IMG/VR virus record: IMGVR_UViG_3300045988_119437 | Span: 72,768-136,767 of that record | DNA from: a virus | Length of the DNA: 64,000 nt | Strand: one strand, 5' to 3' | Part shown: positions 4,897 to 42,170 of the stretch, piece by piece | How positions within the stretch are numbered: position 1 is the stretch's first letter | Layout of the letters: every line of letters starts with the position of its first letter | The notes under the pieces: model-generated | What the model saw: only the letters and a program-made list of their open reading frames with translations | What the model was told of the DNA's origin: nothing | Database searches by the model: none | Translations under genes and position numbers: made by a program

Positions 4897-5214
4897 ATGG
4901 ATGATAATATGATGGAACGTCAGATTGCTGATTATATGGTGAATTATGGCACTGAAAACACGAATTATGGCACATGGGTGTTTGAGGTCGATGAACTGGC
5001 GAAAAAGTTCAATATTACAGAGAAATGGATTCAGGAACATGAAGACGGTATTATGTCTGAGCTGTATCTCAGAGAAGAAGTAGCTGACGTTGAACGTGAA
5101 TTAAGCGGCAATGATATGACTATCACACTTTTTGATGTGGATTTCTACACCAACTATTGCCATAACTATATTGAAGACGAACAGGAAAAGGATGATGACG
5201 TAAATCAGTATTAG
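4897..5214 (+). CDS. hypothetical protein; paralog of 681..1004; ends at TAG followed by 58 further open codons (to 5391)
   Basis: AGGAGGG RBS; stop is TAG at 5212-5214; same frame stays open and protein-like to TAA 5389-5391. Confidence 0.5.
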   Translation: MDDNMMERQIADYMVNYGTENTNYGTWVFEVDELAKKFNITEKWIQEHEDGIMSELYLREEVADVERELSGNDMTITLFDVDFYTNYCHNYIEDEQEKDDDVNQY

Positions 5215-5394
5215 TTTGCTGAAACTCGTTGGTGTATCGATGACGTTATTGATGCAGCGAAGAAAAAAGGAATTGTATTGACTTCGCAACAAGCTGAGTC
5301 GTGGTGGAAAAAGAACGAAAAGTGGTTTAAGGATACTCTTACTGAATATGGTAATGAGATTCTTTTTAATGCAAATTTTAGTAAGGTATAAGTT

Positions 5395-6257: not shown

Positions 6258-6561
6258 GATTGCAAGAGATTTTCTTTCTAAAATGAATCCTTCTGGATGG
6301 AATGGACGTGGATACAAACCGGATACATTTAATGATAAAGATCAGATTAAATATCATGTAGATGGTCACCCTGAAATTGATGTGGATGTTTATTATGAAT
6401 ATGATGCTGGCGATAATAGCTGGTGGCATTTTTGTGATGCACGTTACAATGCTTCTGGCGATAAAATTCTTGGTGTGTGTAATCCTAATGTTTGGTCTAT
6501 TGATGCGATTGAAGAATCTGCTAAATATTTATTTAGCAAAATGAATATTGAAATTAAATAA
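6244..6561 (+). CDS. hypothetical protein
   Basis: ORF overlapping upstream gene end. Confidence 0.5.
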   Translation: MTAREIARDFLSKMNPSGWNGRGYKPDTFNDKDQIKYHVDGHPEIDVDVYYEYDAGDNSWWHFCDARYNASGDKILGVCNPNVWSIDAIEESAKYLFSKMNIEIK

Positions 6562-6578
6562 AATCGAGGTTTTAGAAA

Positions 6579-6782
6579 ATGGAACGAACTATGAATGATA
6601 AACTCATGGAAGCAGCACAGGTTCTTATTGAAAATGGAATGAGTGCGGATGATGCGTATGTTGCTTTGCAGGCGCAGTGTTATATCCTTTTGGATATTGA
6701 GATCGACGATTATCTCACAGATGAAGATTATGAAGAACTCGAAGATTTTGAAAAGAAACTGAGTGAGACAGAGGAGAAATGA
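6579..6782 (+). CDS. hypothetical acidic protein
   Basis: ORF with GAGG RBS; highly acidic C-terminus. Confidence 0.5.
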   Translation: MERTMNDKLMEAAQVLIENGMSADDAYVALQAQCYILLDIEIDDYLTDEDYEELEDFEKKLSETEEK

Positions 6783-6991
6783 TTATGAATATCAACGAAA
6801 TTCGTTACTTTGAACGTAAGATGACCGACAGTGCATTTGATGATGCTGTGAAGTACGATCCAGCGATTGCAGTTCGTGCAAAGCGAGCATGGGTTATAAA
6901 AATACAAGGGCTGATTTCGTTCCGGGAGTACATTTCTTGCTTGCAAGATATTACCGGCAACGCACGAATCTTTTGGAAGTATCAGTTTTAA
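6779..6991 (+). CDS. hypothetical protein
   Basis: ATGA overlap with previous gene. Confidence 0.45.
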   Translation: MIMNINEIRYFERKMTDSAFDDAVKYDPAIAVRAKRAWVIKIQGLISFREYISCLQDITGNARIFWKYQF

Positions 6992-7005
6992 GAGGAGGAA
7001 ACAAA

Positions 7006-7266
7006 ATGTTTTTGCTTATCAATATTTATATTGCAAAAGGTGAGAATTCATTTCTCCCAGAAGTTGTTTATAAAAAGGGTTTTAATACGATTCTTGAGGC
7101 GGAAAATGAAATGAACAAACAAGTGGACGATATTCTTGTAAATCATTATTGTAAATATTATAAAGATGAAAACGGTGAACAGAATTTTAGTGTTTTGCGA
7201 TTAAAAGGTGATATTCGTATTGATGCTTGTGACGTATACGACTGGTGGAAAATCGTAGAGATTTGA
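7006..7266 (+). CDS. hypothetical protein
   Basis: ATG after AGAGGAGGAAAC RBS. Confidence 0.5.
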   Translation: MFLLINIYIAKGENSFLPEVVYKKGFNTILEAENEMNKQVDDILVNHYCKYYKDENGEQNFSVLRLKGDIRIDACDVYDWWKIVEI

Positions 7267-7295
7267 TAAAACAGTTCTTCTAAGGAGATAGTAAT

Positions 7296-7547
7296 ATGAA
7301 TGAAAAGAGATTTGAAATTGACACGCCCATCGGAAAACTGGTTGCTGAAGCTGGTGGAGATTATAAGGATTATCCAGGAATTTATATTTATCTTCAGAGA
7401 GAAGATGGCGTTCAAATTGATTTATCTTGTACGGAAATTGATAAAGAAACTGGCGAAGGCAGGGTCTTTATCTGGGAAAATACGTCTACGGATGAATACA
7501 CTAGGATGATGCGCTGGACTAAAGAACAACTTATGATTAAAGAGTGA
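7296..7547 (+). CDS. hypothetical protein
   Basis: ORF with AAGGAGATAG RBS. Confidence 0.5.
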   Translation: MNEKRFEIDTPIGKLVAEAGGDYKDYPGIYIYLQREDGVQIDLSCTEIDKETGEGRVFIWENTSTDEYTRMMRWTKEQLMIKE

Positions 7548-7566
7548 GCGGAGGGAGTAAAACAAA

Positions 7567-8868
7567 ATGACTACTAACAATTCTATGACTGTAATAACCT
7601 CTAAGCCATTCGGCGCACTGAATGTGGACGTGTACCAGAATGATAAACACCAGTATTATATGACCCGTGAACAGATTGGGCGAGCACTGGAATGTAAAGA
7701 ACCTCGGAAGTACATTGCGAAGATTCATGAGCGTAATGCAGACCGTCTTGACCCGTTGAGCTCGGTCGTCAATTTGACGACTGAGGTCGGAAATTATACG
7801 CAAGAACGTCAAACATATATGTACAGTTTGCGTGGTGTTATGGAAATCTGTCGTTTGTCTCGTCAGCCGAAGGCGGATGCGTTTATGGATTTCTGCTGGG
7901 ACATTATGGAATCTCTGATGCGTGGCGATTCCGTTCTGGCTACTCCTCAGATGGATGCTGCACTGAGTAAGGAGTTCATTGATGTAAGACTTCACGCTCT
8001 GTTTGATAGCATGAAGAACCTTCAGAGTGAACTTGATTCCACTCGCAAGGAGCTCGGTGACCAGATTGAGGAAGCTCGTGCTACTAGCAACGAAGCACTG
8101 AATATAATCAGCAGCGTGTCTCAGTGTGTCCATCAGATTAAGGATAAGCAGATGGATAATTCGATTCGTGCTAAGAGCTATACTCCTCGCAATGTGTTTC
8201 AGGATGAAATGAGTGACTGGCGTAAAGATTTGTATAGCAAGATTGGTGTGATTGCAAATACCAAAGGCTATACGAATAAGGAAACGCTTCACAAGATATA
8301 TGAATATCTGAATCGTAATTATGGTTTCGTTTTGGAAGACGCTCGTGCGAAGTATGTTAAAAGAACGAATCGTAGTGGGAAAATCTCTACGATTGATATT
8401 ATCGAAGAGGACTCCACTTGGAAATCCGTTATGGGTGCTGTTGTCGCAGATATGTACGCGGCATCTATTGAACGTCTGCATCAGAATCAGAATGAACTTC
8501 GTCTGACTCCAAAGGCTGTCGAAGCTGTTTCTGAAGTAAACGTGAGCGACGCTCCCGTGGTTGAGGTGGAAGCCAAGGAAGTTGTTAATGAGAAGCCTAA
8601 GAAGCAGAGTGAGACGGCAAAGATTCTTTTCCCAATTATGATGCCTCTGGCGGAAAACCTTGGTGATAGGCCGCAATACAAGCACACTTATACCCTAATC
8701 TATGAGTGTATTGGTTATAAGAAAATGAATAATTTGTTTATTGCTTACGAGAAGGCTCATGGTAAAGCACCAAGTCCGAAAACAAAGGTGTTTATCGAAA
8801 ACGAAAAGAATCTCGCACTGTTTAAAAAGGCTGTAAAGCAGCTGATGAAAGAACGGGAGAACAAGTAA
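7567..8868 (+). CDS. putative phage antirepressor-like protein (Bro-N/ORF6N-like N-terminus)
   Basis: 433-aa ORF; N-terminal FGALNVDVYQNDKHQYYMTREQIGRAL resembles antirepressor N-domains; by-eye assignment. Confidence 0.4.
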   Translation: MTTNNSMTVITSKPFGALNVDVYQNDKHQYYMTREQIGRALECKEPRKYIAKIHERNADRLDPLSSVVNLTTEVGNYTQERQTYMYSLRGVMEICRLSRQPKADAFMDFCWDIMESLMRGDSVLATPQMDAALSKEFIDVRLHALFDSMKNLQSELDSTRKELGDQIEEARATSNEALNIISSVSQCVHQIKDKQMDNSIRAKSYTPRNVFQDEMSDWRKDLYSKIGVIANTKGYTNKETLHKIYEYLNRNYGFVLEDARAKYVKRTNRSGKISTIDIIEEDSTWKSVMGAVVADMYAASIERLHQNQNELRLTPKAVEAVSEVNVSDAPVVEVEAKEVVNEKPKKQSETAKILFPIMMPLAENLGDRPQYKHTYTLIYECIGYKKMNNLFIAYEKAHGKAPSPKTKVFIENEKNLALFKKAVKQLMKERENK

Positions 8869-9492
8869 ATGTACGTAATATCGAACGGTCATAATTATAT
8901 TATGAAACGGAAAGGGGGTCGGATTTGTGCCACCTGTGATATTAACCTAGCATTACAGTTTGAATCTAAGGGTCTGGCGATTTGTGAAATCAACAAGCTT
9001 CCCGCCGGGTATAAGAATGGACACTATGTACCGAAATCAATGGATGAAATCGAAGCTGCAAATAAGAGTCCGAATATAACAAATCAGGTTGCAAAGCCGA
9101 ATACATACGCATTTCATATGAAAGATTCTGAATGGCTGATAGAGTTGAAGAAAAATCTTGAGGTCACAGACAAAACCATGGCCAGCCTCGATGATTTATA
9201 TGCCAAAGTCTACAGTGATTTAACTGCGGCTAGTGATGAGATTGCTGATATTGAACACGCAATTGAGTTCAAAACAGTGAACGCAGCGCAAGGTTATCAA
9301 CTTATGGCGGAATTAAAGAAGGCTCGTCGTAAGAGGAGAGAAGCCAAGGATGCAAAGTTTCTAATTGAAATTGCGATGAGTCATCGAAACAACAATGATT
9401 GGGGTCATAGTCGGCTTGAGACTGCCATTGAGCAACTTGACACTCGTCAGTTTACTCCGAAAGTTCGCAACGATCTGTTTGAAAAGAATTGA
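8869..9492 (+). CDS. hypothetical protein (207 aa)
   Basis: ORF starting at stop of previous gene (TAAATG). Confidence 0.55.
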   Translation: MYVISNGHNYIMKRKGGRICATCDINLALQFESKGLAICEINKLPAGYKNGHYVPKSMDEIEAANKSPNITNQVAKPNTYAFHMKDSEWLIELKKNLEVTDKTMASLDDLYAKVYSDLTAASDEIADIEHAIEFKTVNAAQGYQLMAELKKARRKRREAKDAKFLIEIAMSHRNNNDWGHSRLETAIEQLDTRQFTPKVRNDLFEKN

Positions 9493-16973: not shown

Positions 16974-17097
16974 ATGGCATCATCTAAAATTTTAAACTTT
17001 TACAACAACAAAAAGATGTATAATATATTGGCTAAAACAAAAAGATGTGTATAATATATCTTGAAAGTTGTCTAAATGAGTGGAGGGCGGTGTTTTA

Positions 17098-17424
17098 ATG
17101 CGTGAGAAAAAGGTTTTGGAAATTATACAGGTTGAAAACTTTTTGAAGTACATAAGAAAAAAGCGAGTGTGGGTCTGCTTTATTTGTAATGGTGTGGATG
17201 TTCACATGATCTGCAAGAAGATGAACGATATTGGTGTAGAGACACATGGGATTGTCAAAGGCATTGGATTTTTTGGAAACGAAAGTCATGTTGAGCTGCG
17301 GCAAGAATGCTACGAAGTAAGGAGGGTTGAGTTTAGGCCGGGCGATAAAGAGAAAGCGTATGAGATGATCTTCGATAACACCAGCGTGTTCGTATCAGAG
17401 AATCCAGAGTTGTACGGGCACTAA
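17098..17424 (+). CDS. hypothetical protein
   Basis: ATG after GAGTGGAGGGCGG; preceded by two tandem -10-like boxes (17003-17065). Confidence 0.5.
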   Translation: MREKKVLEIIQVENFLKYIRKKRVWVCFICNGVDVHMICKKMNDIGVETHGIVKGIGFFGNESHVELRQECYEVRRVEFRPGDKEKAYEMIFDNTSVFVSENPELYGH

Positions 17425-17443
17425 AAATATTTTCGAAAACCTA

Positions 17444-17472
17444 TTGACTTCTGTAAAGGTATCCTGTATAAT
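17444..17472 (+). promoter_or_regulatory. consensus sigma70-type promoter (TTGACT-17-TATAAT) carrying the GTATCCTGTATAATATAG motif
   Basis: TTGACT at 17444-17449, 17-nt spacer, TATAAT at 17467-17472; near-identical to the promoter at 42167. Confidence 0.6.
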
Positions 17473-17515
17473 ATAGCTATGGAACGGAGCTACACTATTA
17501 TAGAGGAGAAAGACT

Positions 17516-17935
17516 ATGGACAACAATATTGACCCAAAGGTCGGAGAGGTTTGGTTGGTTGATCTATCCAATGCGACAGGTCATCAGCAGCGCGGTATTC
17601 GACCGTTCGTTGTGACGAGTAACAATAAGCGCAACTTCTTCAGTCCCACAATCAAAGGGAATCCGTTGTCTTCCAGAACATACAAGCGTTCTCCGGTTCA
17701 TGTCCTGCTCTCAAAGGAAGATTGCGATTTCCTAGAGGTTGACAGTATCGTTCTCTGTGAAGAGACTGACACACTTAACAAAGGGCAGTTTATCAAAAAG
17801 CTTGGTGTCTTGTCTGAGCGTCATATGAATATGATCGCAATGGCCAGATGCAAGGATGAACCGTTTTTGATCTCGGCGTTCGTGAGCGGCGTACAACATA
17901 CTATGGAATTTCAGAATTTTGCCGCATTTGCTTGA
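17516..17935 (+). CDS. MazF/PemK-family toxin-like endoribonuclease (no cognate antitoxin seen)
   Basis: GEVWLVDLSNATGHQQRGIRPFVVTS matches the PemK/MazF N-terminal beta-strand motif; own promoter and GGAGGAG RBS. Confidence 0.6.
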   Translation: MDNNIDPKVGEVWLVDLSNATGHQQRGIRPFVVTSNNKRNFFSPTIKGNPLSSRTYKRSPVHVLLSKEDCDFLEVDSIVLCEETDTLNKGQFIKKLGVLSERHMNMIAMARCKDEPFLISAFVSGVQHTMEFQNFAAFA

Positions 17936-19049: not shown

Positions 19050-20276
19050 ATGAGAACTTTGCTTCTTTTCCGTGGAGCACCAGGATGCGGGAAGTCCACC
19101 TATATTAAAGAGCATGATCTGGAAAAGTATACGCTTAGTGCCGATACGATTCGCCTTATGTGTCAGGGTGGTCAGGAAACCCCGGCTGGCACAATGGAAA
19201 TCTCTCCCCAGAACGATGATGTTGTCTGGGATATGCTCTTTAAACTGTTGGAGGTTCGGATGTCTCACGGTGAATTTACCGTGATTGATGCAACGAACTC
19301 TAAAACTGTTGAAATCAATCGCTATAAGAATCTTGCAAAGCAGTACAGATACAGAATGTACATCATCGACATGACTGATTTGCCGATTGATGAGTGTAAA
19401 CGGCGTAATGCGCTTCGTGCTCCTCTGAAGCGAGTTCCAGATGCTGCTATTGATAAGATGTATGCGCGATTTGCTACACAGAAGATTCCGTCTGGTGTGA
19501 CTGTACTTTCGTCAGATATAAATGTCCTTGAGAAATTGAACTATGTTCCGCAGGACTTTAGCAACTGGAACAAAATTCATATCATCGGTGATGTACATGG
19601 ATGTTACAGTTGCTTGAAAGAGTACCTTGGTGACCTGAAGGATGATGAACTGTACATTTTTGTTGGTGATTATCTGGATCGCGGTATTGAGAATGTAGAG
19701 ATGTTCAAGTTCCTTTGTGATGTTGTAGACAATAATCGGAAGAATGTAATTCTCCTTGAAGGAAATCACGAACGGTGGCTGAACAAGTGGGGCCATGATG
19801 AACCGGTTCAGAGCGAGGAGTTCGCAAACTACACTCGTCCGCAGCTTTTCAAAGCAGGGATTGACCATAATACGGCTCGTAAGGTTTATTCGAGAGTAGG
19901 ACAGTGCTCCTATTTTGATTACGACGAGAAAAGATACTTCGTTAGCCATGGTGGTTTGAGTTATTTGCCTGAATTTCTACCATTCGTGTCTACTGACCAG
20001 ATGGTAAAGGGTGTTGGTCGCTATCCTGATATGCTAACCGTGGCTGAGTCTTGGGAAAAATCGATGCCGGATAGCTACATTCAGATATTCGGTCATCGAA
20101 ATGTGCAGGATGTTCCTATTGATATGGGGCATCGGTGCTACAACCTCGAAGGAAAAATCGAGTTTGGTGGATATCTCCGTTGCGTGGAACTTGAACACGG
20201 TCAGTCAATCAAATGTGTAGAAACAAAGAATGATGTGTTCCGAAAAGAGGAGTCAAAGACTGAAACTACCGTTTAA
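19050..20276 (+). CDS. polynucleotide kinase-phosphatase (Pnkp-like: P-loop kinase + calcineurin-type phosphoesterase)
   Basis: N-terminal FRGAPGCGKST Walker A; C-terminal GDVHGC, GDYLDRG, GNHE metallophosphoesterase motifs. Confidence 0.7.
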   Translation: MRTLLLFRGAPGCGKSTYIKEHDLEKYTLSADTIRLMCQGGQETPAGTMEISPQNDDVVWDMLFKLLEVRMSHGEFTVIDATNSKTVEINRYKNLAKQYRYRMYIIDMTDLPIDECKRRNALRAPLKRVPDAAIDKMYARFATQKIPSGVTVLSSDINVLEKLNYVPQDFSNWNKIHIIGDVHGCYSCLKEYLGDLKDDELYIFVGDYLDRGIENVEMFKFLCDVVDNNRKNVILLEGNHERWLNKWGHDEPVQSEEFANYTRPQLFKAGIDHNTARKVYSRVGQCSYFDYDEKRYFVSHGGLSYLPEFLPFVSTDQMVKGVGRYPDMLTVAESWEKSMPDSYIQIFGHRNVQDVPIDMGHRCYNLEGKIEFGGYLRCVELEHGQSIKCVETKNDVFRKEESKTETTV

Positions 20277-21260
20277 ATGAAAACTGAGTTCGATAACGCA
20301 GAACTTGTCAGTAAGATGCGTCAAAGCAAATATGTGTTTGAGAAGCGATTCGGAGATATTTCTTCTTTCAACTTCTCTCGTGAAGCATTTTATAAGAAGC
20401 ACTGGGATGAGGTTTCTACCAAAGCAAGGGGATTGTTCATTAACACAAAGACGAATAAGATTGTAGCTCGAAGCTATGATAAGTTCTTTGCGGTCGATGA
20501 GCGGAATGAAACGAGAATTGGAAACCTACAGAACACTTTGAAGTTCCCGGTGACTGCATATCTGAAGGAAAACGGATTTCTTGGCATTGTCTCGTATGAT
20601 GCAGAACAGGATGGTCTGTTCATTGCAAGTAAATCCACTCCTGAAGGGCCTTTTGCAGATATGTTCCGAAAGATTCTCATGGATACGACTTCTGATGAAG
20701 ACCGTAAGAATCTGAAGGAAGTTGCAAAAGAGAATGGTTCCATCATTTTTGAGGTGATTGATCCTGTAAATGATGCTCATATCATCGAATACAAGAAACC
20801 GCACATTGTTTTGCTGGATATTGTTGCGAATGATATGAACTTCAGTGTGATGGATTACGATGATCTGAAGCGTGCTGCTGAAAAGTGTCATTTGCAGATT
20901 AAGGAGAAGGTTAAAATCTTTGAGAGCTGGAGTGAATTCTATCCTTGGTACGAGGGAGTCATGAACGAGAACTATCTGCATCATGGCTTTGAACATATTG
21001 AAGGGTTTGTCCTTCTGGATAGCACGAACTTTATGTTCAAGCTGAAGCTTCCTTACTACAAACACTGGAAGTTTTTGCGTAGTGTTATGCAGAGCGTTCA
21101 AAAGCGTGGCTATTATGAAAATACCGCAAAGTTGTTTACTGCTGAGGATAACCTGTTCTATGGTTGGATGCGTGAGCAACGAGAGAAAGACCAGGAATCT
21201 TTTTGCAAGAAGGGTATTATTCAGTTACGGAATGAATTCTATGAGAATCGGCACGAATAA
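20277..21260 (+). CDS. ligase-like nucleotidyltransferase (putative RNA ligase partner of Pnkp)
   Basis: Start abuts the Pnkp stop (TAAATG); candidate motifs I KENG, IV EGFVLLD, V FKLKL. Confidence 0.45.
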   Translation: MKTEFDNAELVSKMRQSKYVFEKRFGDISSFNFSREAFYKKHWDEVSTKARGLFINTKTNKIVARSYDKFFAVDERNETRIGNLQNTLKFPVTAYLKENGFLGIVSYDAEQDGLFIASKSTPEGPFADMFRKILMDTTSDEDRKNLKEVAKENGSIIFEVIDPVNDAHIIEYKKPHIVLLDIVANDMNFSVMDYDDLKRAAEKCHLQIKEKVKIFESWSEFYPWYEGVMNENYLHHGFEHIEGFVLLDSTNFMFKLKLPYYKHWKFLRSVMQSVQKRGYYENTAKLFTAEDNLFYGWMREQREKDQESFCKKGIIQLRNEFYENRHE

Positions 21261-21329
21261 CTAAGATATTTTCTTCCTCCGAAAATGCCCTGCGCGGGGC
21301 TGACAGCCGGGAAAGACCGGCAATTATAT

Positions 21330-21419
21330 GCCCAAGTGATGGAATGAGGTAGACATGAAGCTCCCAAACAGCTTTGCGTGAGATATCGCGTGCGGTTTCG
21401 AATACCGCCTTGGGCACCA
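21330..21419 (+). tRNA. tRNA-Leu(CAA), type II, CCA encoded
   Basis: Acceptor GCCCAAG/CTTGGGC, anticodon stem AAGCT/AGCTT, loop CCCAAAC, variable arm, T arm GCGGT-TTCGAAT-ACCGC; C33 unusual. Confidence 0.65.
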
Positions 21420-21459
21420 GAGTCCGAATATTCACCTATTAAATACTGGAGGCAAGTTC

Positions 21460-22356
21460 ATGAAAAGAATTGAAAAATTTTCAAAAGAAGAGATCGAGCA
21501 GATTTTTAAAGAGAGCAACAACTGGGCTACTGTGGCTGAGAAACTTGGTTACAGCAAATTCGGAGGAAGCTCTAGGGATGTAATCCAAACATATGCAGAC
21601 GAAAATAATATTGACACTTCTCATTTTACGGGACAAGGTTAGAATAAAGGTAATATTGATTTGACAAGATTTAAACAGGGCGTTCCATTCAAAGGGTTAA
21701 GAGAATCGCTCTTACTCATAAGAGAACATAAATGTGAATGCTGTGGAAACAAGGAATAGATGGGAAAGGAAATTTCGTTAGAAGTTCATCATATTGATGG
21801 AGATAGGCTGAATAATGAGTTATCAAATCTCAAGCTACTGTGTCCTAATTGTCATTCACAAACAGAAAATTATTGCGGGAGAAATATTAAGAGACATAGA
21901 GCTGTATCCGATGAAGAGTTTGTAAAGGCGCTTAAAACATCGAAGTCTATTGGTGAGGCGTTAGGAAAAGTGGGAATAAATTACATAGCTAAAAGCTGGT
22001 ATGAAAAAGCACGAGAACTTATGCTTGAAAATGAAATCAAGTTCCCGAAGAAAGAAACAATACAAAAAGGAAAGAACGAACGCAAAAAGCGCGAGACAAA
22101 ATCTTGCGCAAAATGTGGGAAAGAATTGAGTCCAAGAACAAAAGGGACACTATGCAAAGAATGTCTTTATAGTCTTCCATACAGAAGATCTAAAGGGTTG
22201 CCAGAAAGAAGTCAGCTTGAAAAAGATATCCGTGTTATGTCATTTTCTAAAGTTGGAGAAAAGTATGGTGTAACAGGAACTTCTATTCGTAAGTGGTGTA
22301 AATACTATGGACTGCCTTATAGAAGATCCGATATAAACAATACTAGCAAAGAATAA
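21460..22356 (+). CDS. HNH homing endonuclease with NUMOD-like repeats, interrupted by two in-frame TAG codons (21640, 21757)
   Basis: Single frame reads ...HFTGQG-TAG-NKGN...HKCECCGNKE-TAG-MGKEISLEVHHIDGD...NLKLLCPNCHS; HNH motif spans the second TAG. Confidence 0.6.
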
Positions 22357-22398
22357 TTTCAAAAGAATGAAGCTGTATTTTATACAGCTTCTGTATAT

Positions 22399-22486
22399 GC
22401 CGCAGTGATGGAGTGACATACATTTCCCGCTTAAACCGGGACGCCTGAAACACGGATCGTGGGTTTGAATCCCACCTGCGGCACCA
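22399..22486 (+). tRNA. tRNA-Leu(TAA), type II, CCA encoded
   Basis: Acceptor GCCGCAG/CTGCGGC, anticodon stem TCCCG/CGGGA, loop CTTAAAC, T arm GTGGG-TTTGAAT-CCCAC. Confidence 0.65.
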
Positions 22487-22489
22487 TAT

Positions 22490-22563
22490 CCAGAATGTAG
22501 TGTAATGGCAGCACGCTGCGTTTGGGACGCAGAAGAGCGATTCGAATTCGACATTTTGGACCA
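22490..22563 (+). tRNA. tRNA-Pro(TGG)-like; weak T stem, possible pseudo-tRNA
   Basis: Acceptor CCAGAAT/ATTTTGG, anticodon stem CTGCG/CGCAG, loop TTTGGGA, T loop TTCGAAT; only 3 bp of T stem pair. Confidence 0.3.
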
Positions 22564-22564
22564 G

Positions 22565-22585
22565 TGGAGTATTCCACTTGCTTTT
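22565..22585 (+). terminator. possible terminator hairpin
   Basis: GTGGA-GTAT-TCCAC followed by TTGCTTTT. Confidence 0.35.
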
Positions 22586-22659
22586 CATGAATACCTTCCT
22601 ATTATTCTTGGCTCTCCAAAAAAAACGGAGCAGTAGGACGCAGCAAGCCAAGTTACATA

Positions 22660-22749
22660 ATGAGGGTTCGCCAAGTGGTAAATGGCATCTGGCTTTGACC
22701 CAGACAGCGTGCTTTATAGCCGATCGTCGGTTCGATCCCGACACCCTCA
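22660..22749 (+). tRNA. tRNA-Gln(TTG)-like with an enlarged 21-nt variable region
   Basis: U1-A72 acceptor TGAGGGT/ACCCTCA, D arm TCGCCAAGTGGTAAATGGCA, anticodon loop CTTTGAC, T arm GTCGG-TTCGATC-CCGAC. Confidence 0.4.
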
Positions 22750-22754
22750 ATTTA

Positions 22755-22844
22755 TGGACACGTGATGGAATCGCAGACATGAAAGATTTAGGCTCTTTTG
22801 CCGTTAACAACGGTGTGCCCGTTCAAATCGGGTCGTGTCCACCA
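22755..22844 (+). tRNA. tRNA-Leu(TAG), type II, CCA encoded
   Basis: Acceptor GGACACG/CGTGTCC, anticodon stem AAAGA/TCTTT, loop TTTAGGC, variable hairpin CCGTT-AAC-AACGG, T arm CCCG-TTCAAAT-CGGG. Confidence 0.65.
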
Positions 22845-22947
22845 TTATCAACTTATGGTTGCGTACCGTTTGTTGATCTCCTTTGACCACTATTATTCCC
22901 AGCTCGCCAGTGATGGTGCAGTAGTGTTTTGTAAGCTGGGTTTTCAT

Positions 22948-23022
22948 GCGGCGGTCGTACAACGGCTAGTACATCAGCCTTCCAAGCTGAGGATGAGGTT
23001 TCGACTACCTTTCGCTGCTCCA
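22948..23022 (+). tRNA. tRNA-Gly(TCC), CCA encoded
   Basis: Acceptor GCGGCGG/TCGCTGC (two G-U pairs), D stem GTAC/GTAC, anticodon stem TCAGC/GCTGA, loop CTTCCAA, T arm GAGGT-TTCGACT-ACCTT. Confidence 0.65.
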
Positions 23023-23174
23023 ATCTCGTATGGGTAGGATCTTTGGCGGTCAGATCTGGCCGCGCCTGTGCGAGATACCACCCCGAAAGGGGCGAGATAT
23101 AGGAAATGTGCATCGCTGTTATTCCTTCCTCGTCTATATGATATAGATGCAATAGTGTTTTATAAGGAAGGTGC

Positions 23175-23210
23175 CCAGTTGAATAGTTGCAGCTATTTAA
23201 CTGGTTTTTA
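23175..23210 (+). terminator. rho-independent terminator-like hairpin ahead of tRNA-Met
   Basis: CCAGTT...AACTGG stem followed by TTTTTA. Confidence 0.45.
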
Positions 23211-23211
23211 T

Positions 23212-23292
23212 GGGACATTATCTCAATTGGTTAGAGAACTCAGCTCATAACTGAGCATATGTATCACGGTTCAAGTCCGACATGTCCCACCA
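23212..23292 (+). tRNA. tRNA-Met/Ile2(CAT)-like, CCA encoded
   Basis: Acceptor GGGACAT/ATGTCCC, D stem TCTC/GAGA, anticodon stem CTCAG/CTGAG, loop CTCATAA; T stem only 3 bp. Confidence 0.5.
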
Positions 23293-23396
23293 GCCCGAAA
23301 GGGCGTACATAAAACCCGCTAGAACTTTTGTTTTATAAGCGAATGAATAATATGACGTTGATACGTCTATTATTTTTCGCTCATTTTTAAAGTTTT

Positions 23397-23419: not shown

Positions 23420-25003
23420 AAGGAGGAATGGGAACTGAAACATTACGGAGATATCACACAACTCCATGGTGACCAGATTGAACCTGTTGATTGTATCACT
23501 GGAGGTTCGCCCTGCCAAGACCTTTCAATTGCCGGTAAAAGAGCCGGTCTCGCAGGCGGTCGATCTGGTCTGTTTATGGAAATGATTCGTGTGATTCGAG
23601 AGATGAGGGAGGCAACGAATGGAGAATACCCAAAGTTCGTTATCTGGGAGAATGTTAGAGGAGCATTTAGCTCAAACAAAGGAGAAGACTTCCGATGTGT
23701 TTTGGAAGAATTTTCTCACCTTGCAGAGCCAGAAGTTTCAATTCCTCGACCTTCTGGAAAAGACGGAAAATGGTCAAAATCTGGCGCAATTTCCGGTAAT
23801 GGATGGTCTATCGCATGGCGATTGTTCGATGCTCAATACTGGGGAGTGCCCCAGCGTCGCCAAAGAATCGCGCTTGTCATGGATCTTGGAGGACAACGTG
23901 CCGCAGAAATATTATTTGAGCGCACGGGCGTGTCAGGGAATCCTGAACAGAGCATCCCGGCGTGGAAAGCCATTGCCAGATCTCCTGAAAAATGCACTTC
24001 TGGAAATGATCGAATGGTGGGAGAAGATTCCTTCTGCATCGCAGGACACGTTGCAGACCGAGATGTGAGTCAAAATGGTTTAGGTGTCACAAAGGATAAA
24101 TCATATACGCTCGATACCGTTGACAAACATTGTGTCGCCTACACTTTAAAGATTCGTTCCGGTTGCGAGGGTGGTGGAAAGGGTGCTCTGGTACAGACCG
24201 AAAAGAGCGCAACGCTATCCACACTACAGGATCAAACACTAATTTGTTTGGCAGAAAACACCTCTTTACATAATTTAAAACAAAAGATTTCCTCGGCGGT
24301 ATTCGAGAGTCACAGTCAAGACGCTCGATATACCCAGCAAGGAAATACAAGCCCGTCTTGTACAGCCCAGTGGGGAACTGGTGGTAATAATATGCCACTG
24401 GTCGCTGAAAAGAAAGCTTTTGCGATGCAGCGTATTGGAGAGTATAAGGAAAGTGAACAAGCAAGTGCAATGAAATCTCGTGATTACAAAGATGCAACTG
24501 ATCTTGTGATTGAGAAAAAAGACGTAAATTGTGCTGGGTTTCCTCTTGGTTTTAGACCGGAAAACACTCGTTGTTATGATGAATGTGCGACTACACTTTG
24601 TAATGGCACAAGACCAGGATGGACAACCGGGTGTGTTCTCAATTGGATTGTTCGTCGTTTGACTCCTGTTGAATGCGAACGGCTACAGGGTTTCCCTGAC
24701 GGATGGACTGATATTGGGGAATGGACTGATGAGAATGGGAAGAAGCATAAACCCGCTGATTCTCCTCGGTATAAGGCTCTCGGTAATTCGATTGCACTTC
24801 CTCAGTGGTTCTGGATTGCACAGAAAATGAAACCCTATCTTGGCGACGGTGCTACGCTTGGCAGTTTGTTTGATGGAATCTCCGGGTTCCCTTTGGTATG
24901 GACTGAGAGTTATGGCGAAGATACAGCACGTTGGAGCTCTGAGGTTGAACCCTATTGCATTGCTGTGGCAAAATATCATTTCCCAGAAAAAGAAATCTCA
25001 TAA
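23420..25003 (+). CDS. DNA (cytosine-5)-methyltransferase with rearranged motif order (IV-VI-VIII-TRD-IX-X then I)
   Basis: PCQDLS (IV), ENV (VI), QRRQR (VIII), GNSIALP (X); MKPYLGDGATLGSLFDGISGF...YHFPEKEIS at the C-terminus looks like a canonical N-terminus with motif I; no in-frame ATG before 23576. Confidence 0.65.
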   Translation, partial: KEEWELKHYGDITQLHGDQIEPVDCITGGSPCQDLSIAGKRAGLAGGRSGLFMEMIRVIREMREATNGEYPKFVIWENVRGAFSSNKGEDFRCVLEEFSHLAEPEVSIPRPSGKDGKWSKSGAISGNGWSIAWRLFDAQYWGVPQRRQRIALVMDLGGQRAAEILFERTGVSGNPEQSIPAWKAIARSPEKCTSGNDRMVGEDSFCIAGHVADRDVSQNGLGVTKDKSYTLDTVDKHCVAYTLKIRSGCEGGGKGALVQTEKSATLSTLQDQTLICLAENTSLHNLKQKISSAVFESHSQDARYTQQGNTSPSCTAQWGTGGNNMPLVAEKKAFAMQRIGEYKESEQASAMKSRDYKDATDLVIEKKDVNCAGFPLGFRPENTRCYDECATTLCNGTRPGWTTGCVLNWIVRRLTPVECERLQGFPDGWTDIGEWTDENGKKHKPADSPRYKALGNSIALPQWFWIAQKMKPYLGDGATLGSLFDGISGFPLVWTESYGEDTARWSSEVEPYCIAVAKYHFPEKEIS

Positions 25004-35519: not shown

Positions 35520-38500
35520 ATGTCAGATAATTTTGTAAATCTTCATGTACATACAGCGCAGGGTTCGTTACTTGACTCTATTCTTACCGTCAAGGAACTT
35601 GTAAACTTTGCCAAAGAAAATGGCCAGAAAGCAATCGCGGTTACAGACCACGGAAAAATGCACTCTTTTGTTGACCAAGTTAAGGCTTGCAAGGAAGCAG
35701 GTATTAAGCCTATCATCGGCTGTGAAGTCTATGAAGTAGATAATCAGGCAGAGAAAGCCGATACAAAAGACTATAAACAACCTCGTTACCATCTTGTTTT
35801 ACTAGCAAAGAACGAGACCGGTTTAAAAAATCTATTTAAGATTGTTTCAAATGCTTGCGTTGATGGTATGTATAAAAAGCCTCGAACTTCTTTGAACATT
35901 ATTGAACAGAACGAGTGGGGTAAAGGTATCATCTGTCTTACAGCCTGTCAAGTTGGTCGAATGAGTAGATTACTTGTTGATGGCAACGAGACTGAAGCAT
36001 GGCAGTTATGGAACAAACTGGAATGGATCTTTGATGACGTGTTTATGGAAGTACAGTCACATGATACGCCAGATCAAGCTGAGGCCAATGCAAAAATTGC
36101 GGCGTTTATTAGGAAATACGACTTGCCGTATACCATTACGACCGATGCTCACATGCTTTCTAAAGAAGATATTGATGCACACTCTGTCTTTGTTGAGATT
36201 GGAGAAGGCCGAGAAGTTGGTGAAAGCTACGTTGACTGCTATCTTCAGACTGAAAACGATGTTTTGAGAACGCTATCAAAGCAGTTTGATGAGGACTTTA
36301 TCAAAAAAGGCTGTGAGATGTCTGTGAAAATCGCAGACATGATTGATGATATCGATATCGGTCTTGGACAGCCGAACCAGATGCCAGAAGTGAAAATTGA
36401 GGGAAAATTTGATTCTCATTTTGATTATCTTCGGCACCTTGTATATGCCACTTTTAATAAAAAATTCGGGTGGATGAGTGAAGTGGAACAGCAAACCCGG
36501 CGGAATCGTATTGAGATGGAACTGGATGTTTTGAAGTATGTTGATTATATTGACTATTTCATTATGCTGTATATGCTTTGCAAAAAGGCTGATGAACGCA
36601 AAATTCCTCGTGGGTACTCTCGTGGTTCTGGCGCAAATTGTCTTTGCCTTTTTATGGAGAATGTTACTCAGATTGACTCTGTTCGTTGGGATCTTGACTT
36701 CTCTCGCTTTGCAAACAAAGGTAGAAAGAGCCTGGCCGACTTCGACTTCGATGTCTCTAAACGTCGTCGAAAGGAACTTATTGCTATTGCAGAAGAACTT
36801 TTCGGCAAAGAAAATGTTGCTCCTATCGCTACGTTTAACTCTTTGTCTACAAAAGTTGCCATCAAAGATATTGGCAAAGTTCTGAACGAAGACCCAGAAA
36901 GCCCGTATTATATGCAGATTCCGTATGAATTACGTAATGAGGTCGCCAAGTTAATTCCGACTGTAAAAACGCTGGATGATCTTGGCGAAGAAGTTGAAAA
37001 GGAAGTTCTACTAAAGGATATCCTCGGAAAGAGTGAACAGCTTTCTAATGTATATGACAAGTTTCCTCTATGGTTCAAATACGTTATGCGTCTTGAGGGT
37101 CTGCCTAAGAGTATGGGTCGCCATGCTGCCGGTACATTGATTACGCCCAAGCCTGTCATTGAATATTGTCCTCTTTGTATGGACAGAGAAGGCAATCAGA
37201 TGTGCCAACTTGAGATGCACAATGCCATGGATGATTTGTCGCTGGTCAAGATGGACTTCCTTGGTCTTGAGAATCTGGACATTATTGACGATACGTTAAA
37301 GATGGCTGGATTAACATGGGAAGATGTCGATATCAACCATCTTGATCTAAGTGATAAGGCTGTCTATGATACCGTCTACAAGTCGGGCAACACAATTGGC
37401 ATTTTCCAGATGGAATCTGCAGAAGCACGAAAGATGTGTGTTGAAGCAAAGTGCGATAATGCTGAGGATATCATTGTTGTGAACGCAGCGAATCGTCCTG
37501 GTACTAAGGACAGCTTCCCGACGTATTGCTCCAATAAACTTCATCCAGAGACTATCAAACTACTCCATCCTGACATCAAACAGCTTTTTGCTAAGACGCA
37601 ATACATTCTTCTTTATCAGGAACAGGCACTAGCGGTATTCCGCTATGCAGGATTCCCTGAAACTGAGGTTGACAATGCTCGTCGTGCTATCGGCAAGAAA
37701 AAGAAAGATGTTATGGCATCCTTGGAAGTTCAGTTCCGAGATGGTCTTCACAAGAAAGGATGGAATGATTACCAGATTTCTGAGATGTGGGCACTAATCT
37801 TGAAGCAGGCTTCTTATTCCTTTAATAGAGGCCACGCAGTTGCGTATGGACTTCTTTCTTACCTGACGGCTTACCTGAAAACTCATTATACTGAGTATTT
37901 CATGGCTGCGTGTATGATTACCAAGGAAGACGATTCTGGCAAAATGGGTGTGTTTATCAACGAATGCGACCGTCTACATATTCGTGTCCTTCCTCCAAGT
38001 GTCAACAAGTCTGATATGGAATTTAAGGCTGATGCGGAAAAGCACACAATCCTGTTTGGTTTGAAAGCCATTAAGGGAATGGGTGAGAGTGTCGCTTCAG
38101 GAGTGATTGCAGACCGTCCATATTCTGGACTGGCAGACTTTGTTCAGAGAGCAAACGGTGGTAAGATTGGAACCTCAAATGTTGTCAAGTTGATTAAGGC
38201 TGGCGCTATCCCGACAAAGGATAAGAAAAAAATCTTAATCACTTTTGCAAATATGGTTTTTGAGAATGAGTATAAAGAGAAAGGATTCCATGAGATGGCG
38301 TCTCTCCCTAAGATTTCCATTCTTAAAGACGAATACGGCATTGATACGGACTCTGTTAAAGACAAACCAACCAGACTTGCCTTATATAATAAGGTAAGAA
38401 GGGAGCGCTGGGAAGCGGGCACATGGAATCGAAAGAAAGAAAAAGACAAAAAGCGGAATGCATTTATGCAGGCGTTTGCTGAAAAGTATATGCAAGACGA

Positions 38501-38864
38501 GCACATGTGGGAATTTGAAACTCTTTCAATGTTTTTGACTAGCAATCCCATTAAGGATGCTTGCACCTATATTGATGCTGGTCTTGATACTGTAGAGGAT
38601 GGCGGTAAGGCAACTGCTATTTGTGTCATCGTAGATATCCAAAAAAAGAAGGATAAACGTGGCAACCAGTTTGCGTACTTACATGTTTACACGACAGGTG
38701 GTATTGTCGAAATGATTTGTTGGGCATCTCAGTATGCACGATATTCAAGTCTGATTTCAAAGGGTAACGATCTTGCAATCCTTTGCAAGAGAAAAGAAAA
38801 TTCGTACATTGTTGAGAAGATGAAGCCTTATAAGCAGTGGCTGCATGATAGAGAGATAGCGTAA
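35520..38864 (+). CDS. DNA polymerase III alpha subunit (PHP + polymerase core)
   Basis: PHP motif NLHVHTAQGSLLDS, catalytic LADFDFDV, 1114 aa. Confidence 0.85.
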   Translation: MSDNFVNLHVHTAQGSLLDSILTVKELVNFAKENGQKAIAVTDHGKMHSFVDQVKACKEAGIKPIIGCEVYEVDNQAEKADTKDYKQPRYHLVLLAKNETGLKNLFKIVSNACVDGMYKKPRTSLNIIEQNEWGKGIICLTACQVGRMSRLLVDGNETEAWQLWNKLEWIFDDVFMEVQSHDTPDQAEANAKIAAFIRKYDLPYTITTDAHMLSKEDIDAHSVFVEIGEGREVGESYVDCYLQTENDVLRTLSKQFDEDFIKKGCEMSVKIADMIDDIDIGLGQPNQMPEVKIEGKFDSHFDYLRHLVYATFNKKFGWMSEVEQQTRRNRIEMELDVLKYVDYIDYFIMLYMLCKKADERKIPRGYSRGSGANCLCLFMENVTQIDSVRWDLDFSRFANKGRKSLADFDFDVSKRRRKELIAIAEELFGKENVAPIATFNSLSTKVAIKDIGKVLNEDPESPYYMQIPYELRNEVAKLIPTVKTLDDLGEEVEKEVLLKDILGKSEQLSNVYDKFPLWFKYVMRLEGLPKSMGRHAAGTLITPKPVIEYCPLCMDREGNQMCQLEMHNAMDDLSLVKMDFLGLENLDIIDDTLKMAGLTWEDVDINHLDLSDKAVYDTVYKSGNTIGIFQMESAEARKMCVEAKCDNAEDIIVVNAANRPGTKDSFPTYCSNKLHPETIKLLHPDIKQLFAKTQYILLYQEQALAVFRYAGFPETEVDNARRAIGKKKKDVMASLEVQFRDGLHKKGWNDYQISEMWALILKQASYSFNRGHAVAYGLLSYLTAYLKTHYTEYFMAACMITKEDDSGKMGVFINECDRLHIRVLPPSVNKSDMEFKADAEKHTILFGLKAIKGMGESVASGVIADRPYSGLADFVQRANGGKIGTSNVVKLIKAGAIPTKDKKKILITFANMVFENEYKEKGFHEMASLPKISILKDEYGIDTDSVKDKPTRLALYNKVRRERWEAGTWNRKKEKDKKRNAFMQAFAEKYMQDEHMWEFETLSMFLTSNPIKDACTYIDAGLDTVEDGGKATAICVIVDIQKKKDKRGNQFAYLHVYTTGGIVEMICWASQYARYSSLISKGNDLAILCKRKENSYIVEKMKPYKQWLHDREIA

Positions 38865-41800: not shown

Positions 41801-42170
41801 AAACCGTGGCATTATCCGAAAGATTGAGACTAGTTTTATTCTGGTTGATTTTGACCAATGGGGAACGATCTTCATTCCGCATTACTTTGGTGGGAATAAC
41901 ATCTGGGCAACGCTTGAACTTGCTTATGCTTTAAGTTGTCATAAACTACAGGGCAGTGAGGCTCCGTATGTGATTGTTGGTATGGACAACTCTGCATACC
42001 TGATGCTGACGAGAGAATGGCTCTATACGGCCATTACTCGTGCCAAGAAGTATTGTGTGATTTGCGCCGAAACTCATGCTCTTGATCGGGCTGTAAAGAC
42101 TTCGAGGGTGCCATACAAGCGGACGTTCTTGAAGGAATTTTTACGGAAAGAATTTTCAGAAAAGCATTGA
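38877..42170 (+). CDS. RecD2-like SF1 DNA helicase with HhH N-domain; Walker A interrupted by an intein
   Basis: GTG start; GIGWKKADALA HhH; ILTGYGG|intein|TGKSTVV rebuilds GxxGxGKST; C-terminal helicase motifs. Confidence 0.75.
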   Translation: MADKKFNENMIRCYIRIKRVFYPKDGREVEPGGFATFSAEVVKVKQGNPVMSRYSDLRLKGNVPSLDMNKTYSFCGEYVHHEKFGDQYKIIYMNEFQEITDPEEQKSFLHYILTDHQFEILYEAFENPYEIIKNGDIKSLCTVSGITEGRAQKIIDTYENNIDNSDAYTKLIEYGLTPSAIEKLVRQYHGADTLVRKIEENPYVLIDDVYGIGWKKADALALNMGLKHNSQFRIEAYVMHFLAGRAEEGNSIISANQTINSCIKELDLNEGDQEVIKRALFHLHDARETLWWSDDRQEFALTRVWNLEDSIAKEIKRLADVPVEPIGRNMDAAINEAEDELGIEYTEEQRDAIKKVCSSNVCILTGYGGCLDAEMEFFNGIQWKKIKDYVKGDKVLQYNENGTTTLVEPEKYVKFKCEYLYHMKNKSGSINQLLSAEHNVVYLTSKNNLAKIPMWELYQRNVKRKSGFNGHFITTFNYDGPGIDLSDADIRLMCAVICDGSFLKDHKSAWCRVNVKKERKKLRMRRLLLESGRYFDEHQWNPKDLEYSNFVFYAPRKEKRFTSYWYSCNHHQLEVICDEILNWDGHVKEGRRKDFSTLIKETADFVQFAFSSCGYRSVVHESNIERHGRMVTEYNVHIVQHSNGKVSLMTKGSKSDIDIVRSSDGYKYCFTVPSHMFLIRYNGRICVTGNTGKSTVVAGVLKVLHGKSFAQTALSGRAAARMQEITGQDGKTIHRLLGYDIENGGFIHNKDNPLEEDIIILDETSMVGAQLFYDLIQAIETGKRFIMIGDDGQLESIGMCNIFKDMLASKVVPVARLTKIHRQAAKSAIITESIKVRNATQLVPYGWAGSEIRGELRDLELDIYKDASESFNHIINQYRTLYNKVGNDSAKIQIVLPQKLRGSICTYEVNNAIQEIVNPSRGQAEAKVTIYGDGKDRVYTLREGDQVIINKNNYELHTYNLKTKKKEEKCPVFNGNRGIIRKIETSFILVDFDQWGTIFIPHYFGGNNIWATLELAYALSCHKLQGSEAPYVIVGMDNSAYLMLTREWLYTAITRAKKYCVICAETHALDRAVKTSRVPYKRTFLKEFLRKEFSEKH
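39984..40946 (+). mobile_element. intein (321 aa) with LAGLIDADG-type homing endonuclease core
   Basis: Starts with Cys after GYGG, block B SAEHN, LMCAVICDGSF LAGLIDADG-like motif, ends ...VTGN followed by T. Confidence 0.65.

Follow-up and report, generated by a model that had tools for sequence, protein, structure and literature searches.

The 64,000 nucleotide stretch of viral DNA analysed here (positions 72,768 to 136,767 of IMG/VR virus record IMGVR_UViG_3300045988_119437, hereafter the window) carries a heal-and-seal RNA-repair cassette, whose kinase, phosphatase and ligase domains retain intact active-site residues, followed by an island of seven transfer RNA (tRNA) genes. The cassette is present as two abutting open reading frames (ORFs), ORF1 for the healing enzyme and ORF2 for the ligase. 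Judged by its sequence, the locus is an ordinary member of PHROG 8238, a widespread phage kinase-phosphatase-ligase family, apart from one stop codon that interrupts it. We are fairly confident that the split is a rare, recent and sporadic nonsense allele of a fused gene and not an evolved two-subunit design. An earlier note on this DNA had recognised the repair cassette, and all of the features it described lie where it placed them. It had taken the locus for a bacterial polynucleotide kinase-phosphatase (Pnkp) with its ligase module split off, joined to a tRNA island, and had thought such an arrangement undescribed. That novelty does not hold.

PHROG 8238 is a family of 737 positions, named RNA ligase, and both window ORFs map onto it colinearly. 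Residues 1–404 of ORF1 match positions 1–401 of phrog_8238 (E = 1.9e-129), and residues 6–324 of ORF2 match positions 413–732 (E = 1.8e-87). A tblastn search with ORF2 matched 210 phage records, whereas a megablast of the region against GenBank phages matched no more than 73 nt of a tRNA. In all four of the phages that were inspected (listed in Table 1) the homolog is one protein of 731–754 amino acids (aa), annotated as an RNA ligase, with a full-length identity of 38–45% and all catalytic residues kept. The window has every other feature of the family and lacks only the single polypeptide, its frame being closed by TAA at codon 409. For the enzyme the claim of novelty was thus wrong, since the fused protein already forms PHROG 8238, with annotated members in Twort, Brochothrix A9 and many other phages. 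A literature search of incomplete coverage found no paper characterising the fused phage enzyme.

The healing enzyme is a Pnkp-like kinase joined to a binuclear metallophosphoesterase and not of the T4 HAD type, as the earlier note had proposed. Pfam assigns residues 4–142 of ORF1 to the AAA_33 P-loop kinases (E = 1.7e-21) and residues 175–353 to the calcineurin-like metallophosphoesterases (PF00149, E = 2.2e-16). Among solved structures in the PDB, residues 4–130 match the CthPnk kinase domain (4gp7/4jst, E = 2e-5) and the phosphatase matches lambda phosphatase (1g5b, E = 6.4e-7). The bacterial Pnkp model TIGR04075, of 851 positions, aligns with ORF1 at profile positions 10–324 (E = 1.9e-21) and gives 76 bits against a cut-off of 750. 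ORF1 has no T4-type HAD (DxDxT) phosphatase, and phrog_505 matches its kinase part only (residues 1–148). In a family alignment of 10 sequences the P-loop GAPGCGKST (G9–T17), D32 and R35 of the kinase are invariant, as are D181, H183, D207, D210, R211, N239, H240, H300 and H349 of the phosphatase, which make up the motifs GDxHG, GDxxDRG, GNHE, H300 and GH349. The ratio of nonsynonymous to synonymous substitution rates (dN/dS) between the window and a further related locus, L006, is 0.04 for the kinase and 0.08 for the phosphatase. The gene starts behind a strong Shine-Dalgarno sequence, AAGGAG, 5 nt before the ATG.

The ligase is a genuine nucleotidyltransferase, as had been proposed, although not of the kind proposed. 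ORF2 matches PF09511 (RNA_lig_T4_1) from end to end (profile 1–227 of 227) with 135 bits against a gathering threshold of 28.3, and also matches phrog_21952, a stand-alone phage ligase family of 327 positions. Its best solved matches are the Trl1 ligase domains 9qw7 (E = 8e-16), 6n0v and 6n67, with T4 Rnl1 next (2c5u, E = 3.5e-7; 5tt6). The alignment with fungal Trl1 spans motifs I (LKENG), III (FEV), IV (EGFV) and V (FKLKL) and reaches the C-terminal LRNEF motif. The motifs picked out by eye from the sequence were therefore correct, KENG being motif I with K97, EGFV motif IV and FKLKL motif V. K97-E-N-G (K97-x-N-G), E159, E242-G243, K255 and K257 are invariant in the family alignment, and dN/dS against L006 is 0.07. 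The assignment of ORF2 as the ligase module of Pnkp fails, since an NCBIfam search that included TIGR04075 gave zero matches at E ≤ 0.01 and Pnkp ligase-domain chains are not among its PDB matches; it belongs to the Rnl1 family, with the Trl1 ligase domains closest.

What, then, separates the two ORFs? Both lie in one reading frame, and the joint reads GTT TAA ATG, the stop abutting the ATG of the 327-aa ORF as had been reported. At L006 the same junction reads GTT GAA ATG, a single G-to-T change. The close relatives compared here are the best 80 of 501 found by a scan of viral contigs in IMG/VR, at 83–99.9% identity; they are gut phages with genomes mostly of 110–138 kb. The junction codon specifies Glu in all 80 (GAA in 79, GAG in one), and a fully open frame of 736 codons is found in 78. 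The closest proteins of a large collection also read through the junction (...KTETAV-E-MKTEFDNAEL...). The cassette of one relative, L021, differs from that of the window at 2 of 2,211 nt (99.9% identity), and the stop is one of the two differences. Scans of IMG/VR for the exact junction pattern found GAA in 74 contigs and TAA in none. In all relatives the start Met of ORF2 corresponds to a residue inside the fused protein, and no Shine-Dalgarno match precedes it, as against 45 of the 59 window ORFs that have one. Given the strong constraint on all three domains (dN/dS of 0.04, 0.08 and 0.07), the lesion must be recent. At L006 itself and in the P0001 cluster the gene has a 1-nt deletion in a G-run, the remaining frame being intact.

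These data do not bear out the split as an architecture. We propose that a recent G-to-T change turned Glu409 (GAA) into TAA, which would leave a healing enzyme of 408 aa with a ligase ORF of 327 aa behind it. Because ORF2 has no ribosome-binding site of its own, the ligase would then be made only through termination-reinitiation at TAA-ATG, probably at a lower level.

Could the two products instead be a functional two-subunit system, an evolved Pnkp variant in which the healing enzyme works with a translationally coupled ligase in trans? The TAA-ATG adjacency permits reinitiation, and the break lies exactly in the linker, the most variable and indel-rich part of the family alignment, so that both products are complete domains. 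Several observations weigh against a simple recent lesion. The TAA allele, with its 408-aa product followed by the 327-aa ORF, is also recorded in Logan assembly DRR042365, where 5.2 kb are 100% identical, and in four further blocks of the collection, the longest contig with it being 50–200 kb; its presence in several assemblies indicates that it is passed on, and it may be tolerated or even serve a function. At L010 an IS66 element (6301–8931) lies between intact genes of 409 and 328 aa, and at L008 (6243) and at L011 (6273) a lone in-frame TAG in or close to the linker is followed by a complete ligase frame. Stand-alone ligases of the same length form phrog_21952, and Mucorales fungi naturally encode a stand-alone Trl1-type ligase (PMC10946426). 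Such linker breaks with an intact ligase, together with phrog_21952, suggest that separate polypeptides can work, and the halves are probably functional apart, although this is not what evolved here. The ranking of the relatives may also favour uninterrupted genes; the exact-pattern junction counts are free of this bias. As to the reaction itself, ORF2 is nearer in sequence to the Trl1-type ligases, which require a 2'-PO4 (PMC10946426), than to T4 Rnl1, so that the healed 3' end may be of either type and a Tpt1-like step may be needed, and the substrate (tRNA, other RNA or DNA) is predicted by homology. We nevertheless consider an evolved two-subunit system quite unlikely. ORF2 begins at a Met that is internal in the fused relatives, with no newly evolved start and no Shine-Dalgarno sequence; a stop at the junction is found in none of the 80 relatives and in none of the exact junctions against 74 with GAA; the nearest genome is 2 nt away, which leaves no time for adaptation; and the ligase is not the Pnkp-type module.

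Two further readings dispense with the split in other ways. The TAA might be a sequencing or assembly error, the gene being truly fused here too, as it sets the window apart by one base from a relative of 99.9% identity and IMG/VR has no copy of the allele. Its recovery in DRR042365 and in the four collection blocks makes an error very improbable, although some of these may share the sample of the window, and substitution errors at non-repetitive sites are rare in a short-read consensus. Or the stop may be leaky or decoded, giving a healing-only protein together with some full-length fusion, for example if the tRNA-Gln(UUG) of the phage were to read UAA. In yeast tRNA-Gln(UUG) is known to read UAA as a near-cognate codon, a Gln in the variable linker would be harmless, the HNH gene of the same island appears to be translated through conserved TAGs (see below), and L008 and L011 have no usable start codon behind their single in-frame TAGs. 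On the other side, TAA closes 36 of the 60 window ORFs and is recognised by both release factors, we know of no phage that reassigns it, the allele is rare and recent, and the window, the 80 islands and 164 further loci yielded no suppressor tRNA. Such decoding is in our view highly unlikely. A conserved or programmed in-frame linker stop, as L008 and L011 might suggest, was rejected for this locus because no stop is seen in the 80 relatives or in the 74 exact junctions. Genome-wide recoding of TAG, TGA or TAA as the cause of the split was also rejected; the window has a coherent ORF map under the standard code with TAA as its main terminator. The nonsense allele remains the preferred explanation, and the locus and its relatives form a natural experiment on the separability of the modules, with fused alleles, a linker stop, a linker insertion sequence and stand-alone ligases.

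The repair-gene TAA can be read as one more case of a kind of lesion found elsewhere in the window. Treating TAG as sense adds almost nothing to the ORF map, and TAG closes at most 2 of the 60 window ORFs, namely the ORF at 4897 (where it replaces TGG) and one with a TAA two codons on. The ORF at 4897–5391, an accessory gene, ends at TAG (5212–5214), and 58 more open codons beyond it look like protein. The site is TGG, within a 164-codon ORF, in 54 of 72 relatives (loci L171–L242), and TAG in the window and in L171. Other genomes have lesions of their own in this ORF: TAG at W27, TAG at Q96, and TGA at a Trp codon. Such sporadic nonsense alleles are a frequent feature of this phage population, and the change of TGG to TAG recurs. 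Two further ORFs, 35520–38864 (1114 aa) and 38877–42170 (1097 aa), lie in the same frame with a single TAA between them, and reading TAA as sense gives 2,216 codons. This pair could be another nonsense-split gene or simple adjacency.

By homology with T4 Pnkp and Rnl1, CthPnkp and Trl1, the kinase would phosphorylate 5'-OH ends, the metallophosphoesterase would open 2',3'-cyclic phosphates and remove 2',3'-cyclic or 3'-phosphate ends, and the ligase would seal through a lysyl-AMP intermediate, with adenylylation on K97 and RNA sealing predicted from the homologs. Wild-type CthPnkp yields ends that T4 Rnl1 seals, and its H189D mutant leaves a 2'-PO4 (PMC1920235). The counterpart of H189, the GDxHG histidine H183 of ORF1, is kept, and for this reason healing by ORF1 probably yields 2'-OH/3'-OH ends of the kind sealed by T4 Rnl1. 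No Hen1-like methyltransferase was found among the ORFs scanned at 12.1–31.8 kb, in agreement with the earlier note; the only methylase there is a C5 cytosine DNA methylase.

Which RNAs would be repaired? By analogy, the enzyme might plausibly repair tRNAs that host nucleases, or the MazF of the phage itself, have cut. Phage RNA ligases and phage tRNAs have been described as counter-measures to tRNA cleavage (PMC9503650), and the suggestion that the cassette acts in counter-defence against host anticodon nucleases is a reasonable analogy. The enzyme might on the other hand work chiefly with the phage's own MazF, repairing collateral cuts, including those in the phage tRNAs, or might process tRNA transcripts, and not serve primarily in counter-defence. 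The repair gene has a MazF/PemK gene 1.1 kb upstream of it, which is kept in all 80 relatives and also at L005 and L006, and no terminator-like site was found between the ligase gene and the first tRNA. In the distant fused-gene phages (L001–L004, L008, L010 and L011), however, there is no annotated PemK/MazF within 5 kb, which indicates that the enzyme family is independent of MazF, and we think this role unlikely. The MazF gene is preceded by a 114-aa ORF without a family match (the pair spanning window 17080–17935), which is possibly its antitoxin. An RlaP nucleotidyltransferase, found about 3 kb upstream at L006, was considered as a part of the cassette and rejected, as it has no Pfam match among the window ORFs tested. 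Downstream of the island, the C5 methylase gene (23420–25003) matches Pfam in two stretches only, the best at residues 339–419, and its called start lies well inside the open frame; it is possibly rearranged or interrupted.

ARAGORN agrees with the seven tRNA genes and the anticodons that had been proposed (Table 1). Six of them score 44–54 bits with the Rfam model RF00005; tRNA-Leu(CAA) was not reported by this model at E ≤ 1. In the 80 relatives and L006 the tRNAs behind the ligase gene come in an essentially fixed order, Leu-CAA, Leu-TAA, Pro-TGG, Gln-TTG, Leu-TAG, Gly-TCC. Eight distant loci that carry the repair gene have no tRNA within 5 kb of it, and this holds for the four inspected phages with the fused protein. 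The association of repair gene and tRNA island described in the earlier note is thus real here, in the 80 relatives and at L006, and absent from all eight distant loci, which makes it a property of this lineage and not of the enzyme family.

Table 1. Features of the repair cassette, the tRNA island and their surroundings in window coordinates, with fused homologs in other phages
Feature	Position	Strand	Evidence
MazF/PemK-family endoribonuclease toxin gene	17516..17935	+	PF02452, E = 4.5e-19
ORF1, predicted P-loop 5'-OH polynucleotide kinase and binuclear metallophosphoesterase, 408 aa	19050..20276	+	Pfam, PHROG, TIGR04075, PDB
TAA nonsense codon in the inter-domain linker (Glu409 in relatives)	20274..20276	+	comparison with relatives
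ORF2, predicted Rnl1/Trl1-type ATP-dependent RNA ligase, 327 aa	20277..21260	+	PF09511, PHROG, PDB
tRNA-Leu(CAA), 90 nt, anticodon loop CCCAAAC	21330..21419	+	ARAGORN only
HNH homing-endonuclease gene in the tRNA island, TAGs at 21640–21642 and 21757–21759	21460..22356	+	phrog_10822 matches both pieces
tRNA-Leu(TAA)	22399..22486	+	ARAGORN; Rfam 47.0 bits
tRNA-Pro(TGG), weak T-stem (one non-standard pair)	22490..22563	+	ARAGORN; Rfam 45.2 bits
tRNA-Gln(TTG), 19-nt variable-region insertion	22661..22750	+	ARAGORN; Rfam 52.8 bits
tRNA-Leu(TAG)	22756..22844	+	ARAGORN; Rfam 44.1 bits in local search
tRNA-Gly(TCC), nearly identical in L006	22948..23022	+	ARAGORN; Rfam 53.6 bits
CAT-anticodon tRNA (Met by ARAGORN), 81 nt, enlarged variable region	23212..23292	+	Rfam 46.2 bits
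Fused single-ORF homologs: Alicyclobacillus phage KKP_3916, Bacillus phage SPbetaL2, Brochothrix phage A9 gp147, Staphylococcus phage Twort ORF008			

The island would be a separate module, supplying mainly tRNAs with U34 for A-ending codons, and may also stand in for host tRNAs that have been damaged. U34, for reading codons that end in A, is found in five of the seven tRNAs. Codon supply would explain this set, the three Leu tRNAs included, at least as well as nuclease evasion, the explanation to which the earlier note had inclined. The codons that these tRNAs read make up minor to moderate fractions in the genes of the window (TTA 0.10, CTA 0.09, CAA 0.28, GGA 0.24, CCA 0.22, ATA 0.08).

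Individual members of the island vary. The anticodon loop of tRNA-Leu(CAA), CC-CAA-AC, has C33 where U33 is near-universal; of 81 genomes counted, 16 share this loop, and the other alleles have U33. The tRNA-Gln(UUG) is 90 nt long, as against 71–72 nt in most relatives, the remainder of its body being that of a typical tRNA-Gln, including U1-A72; alleles with such a long arm (87–90 nt) are found in about ten relatives, most of which have the HNH gene. At the locus of the CAT-anticodon tRNA five relatives have a TAT anticodon (loop CTTATAA), and variants of 92 nt or other kinds are found elsewhere. Because a TAT tRNA replaces the CAT tRNA at this locus in the five genomes, the latter is probably an AUA-reading tRNA-Ile2 and not tRNA-Met. 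Between the stretch 21330–22844 and L006 8329–9022 the Leu-CAA, Leu-TAA, Pro, Gln and Leu-TAG genes are only about 60% identical, with the same anticodons in the same order. The diverged tRNAs show compensatory stem changes between the window and L006, and the spacers and the Gly tRNA are 90–100% identical. Among the 80 genomes 14–26 distinct alleles were counted for each island tRNA. Co-conversion with the HNH gene or diversifying selection is a possible source of this divergence.

The HNH gene in the island follows tRNA-Leu(CAA), as the earlier note had said; what it had missed is that the gene is one frame with two in-frame TAGs. The gene is present in 11 of the 80 relatives, always between Leu-CAA and Leu-TAA, and is absent from L006; the relatives listed as carrying it are L020, L021, L029, L041, L052, L077 and L084. 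Alleles with 66–74% DNA and 51–58% protein identity are full-length, with 294–299 codons and without TAA or TGA. Both TAG positions (GQG*NKGN and CCGNxE*) are kept in these diverged alleles, and a further TAG, at a site that is TGG in the window, is found in three alleles. Each of these three sites is Trp in standard-code homologs from Enterococcus, Rhodococcus and Gordonia phages. Between alleles the proportion of synonymous differences (pS) is saturated at 0.7–0.85, and that of nonsynonymous differences (pN) is 0.12–0.38 in every segment, including the 198 codons past the second TAG. When neutral divergence of 30% was simulated about eight new stops arose, and 0 of 2,000 runs had none.

As the frame is intact and under purifying selection and the standard-code homologs have Trp, the HNH gene appears to be translated through UAG, apparently as Trp. 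It is possible, if doubtful, that a Trp-inserting amber suppressor or UAG-to-UIG RNA editing decodes these codons in a phage that otherwise uses the standard code. A tRNA with a CUA anticodon was looked for in the window, the 80 islands and 164 further loci, a scan that did not reach the left ~65 kb of the genome, and none was found. The TAGs also depart from the code-15 pattern, as they align with Trp and not Gln and no CUA tRNA is present in the loci scanned. Editing of the TadA type, A to I, was considered and is not favoured by the sequence context: the known TadA motif is UACG, which is absent, the TAG contexts here being T-TAG-A. A kinship with the TAG-to-Gln phages of the phAss-1 type, which have the same genome size, was rejected, as those have 36 tRNAs and 41 recoded ORFs, at Gln positions (PMC10607447). 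Only two reassignments, TAG to Gln and TGA to Trp, appear in the main survey of recoding in phages. If the reading of UAG as Trp is true, this would be gene-specific amber decoding that matches neither of these, and TAG could act as a switch that limits the expression of a selfish nuclease. A permissive translation of this kind could also explain why nonsense alleles are tolerated, such as TGG to TAG in the ORF at 4897 and possibly the TAA of the repair gene. Should proteomics confirm that conserved TAGs occupy Trp positions in this constrained frame, the gene would represent a kind of stop-codon use new to phages. In Rhodococcus phage Francesca (L094 444–1002) and Gordonia phage GodonK (L095 507–1029) the HNH homologs directly follow a tRNA-Leu in tRNA islands, and this endonuclease family appears to target such islands.

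The fused family has further variants among more distant phages. About 20 relatives of about 50% identity (P0019, P0057, P0074, P0060, P0077, P0050 and others) all end near fused position 484, just after the YDKFF of the ligase, with a conserved non-homologous tail (...SVSEICSNPKLAGVDING), and in one relative, P0099, the protein is joined to NUMOD/HNH_3 domains. In other lineages the ligase gene may thus carry a conserved intron or an inserted homing endonuclease. In Brochothrix phage A9 (L003 1119–5897) one small ORF lies between the fused gene and the genes for ribose-phosphate pyrophosphokinase and nicotinamide phosphoribosyltransferase, of nicotinamide adenine dinucleotide (NAD) salvage; these neighbours may be relevant if a 2'-phosphotransferase step is involved.

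How does the locus compare with known repair systems? Its closest likeness is to the PHROG 8238 proteins, which have the same three modules in the same order as ORF1 and ORF2. These proteins are single chains, whereas the frame of the window is broken by one linker TAA. What had seemed a new split Pnkp is thus a nonsense allele of a catalogued and apparently uncharacterised enzyme family, which joins healing domains of the Pnkp type and a Trl1-like ligase on one chain. The family is abundant in Firmicutes phages, with 501 relatives in IMG/VR, and may be one of the main means by which phages of Gram-positive hosts counter defences that cleave tRNA.

T4 Pnkp and Rnl1, acting against PrrC, share with it the logic of a phage 5'-kinase, a 3'-phosphatase and an Rnl1-family ligase that reseal tRNA. 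The T4 phosphatase is of the HAD/DxDxT kind on a protein separate from the ligase, whereas the family described here uses a metallophosphoesterase and normally combines all three activities in a single polypeptide. Fungal and plant Trl1 is also a trifunctional heal-and-seal enzyme, and its ligase domains are the best solved matches of ORF2. It has the reversed domain order, however, and heals by a 2H cyclic phosphodiesterase, leaving the 2'-PO4 that is required for sealing. The Mucorales RNA ligase resembles ORF2 in being a Trl1-type ligase on a separate protein (PMC10946426).

Bacterial Pnkp (C. thermocellum, TIGR04075) has, like ORF1, a P-loop kinase followed by a lambda-phosphatase-like metallophosphoesterase. 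It has its own ligase module and a Hen1 partner, in contrast to the window with its PF09511 ligase, its 76 bits against 750 and no Hen1 in the ORFs scanned. The Capnocytophaga Pnkp1-Rnl-Hen1 complex has healing and sealing on separate polypeptides, as the window does (PMC4411300). Its module families are the opposite ones, with a T4-like HAD Pnkp1, a Pnkp-type Rnl and a requirement for Hen1 (PMC4411300). By its domain families, therefore, the locus falls outside bacterial Pnkp, where ligase module, cut-off score and Hen1 all fail, and outside Pnkp1-Rnl-Hen1.

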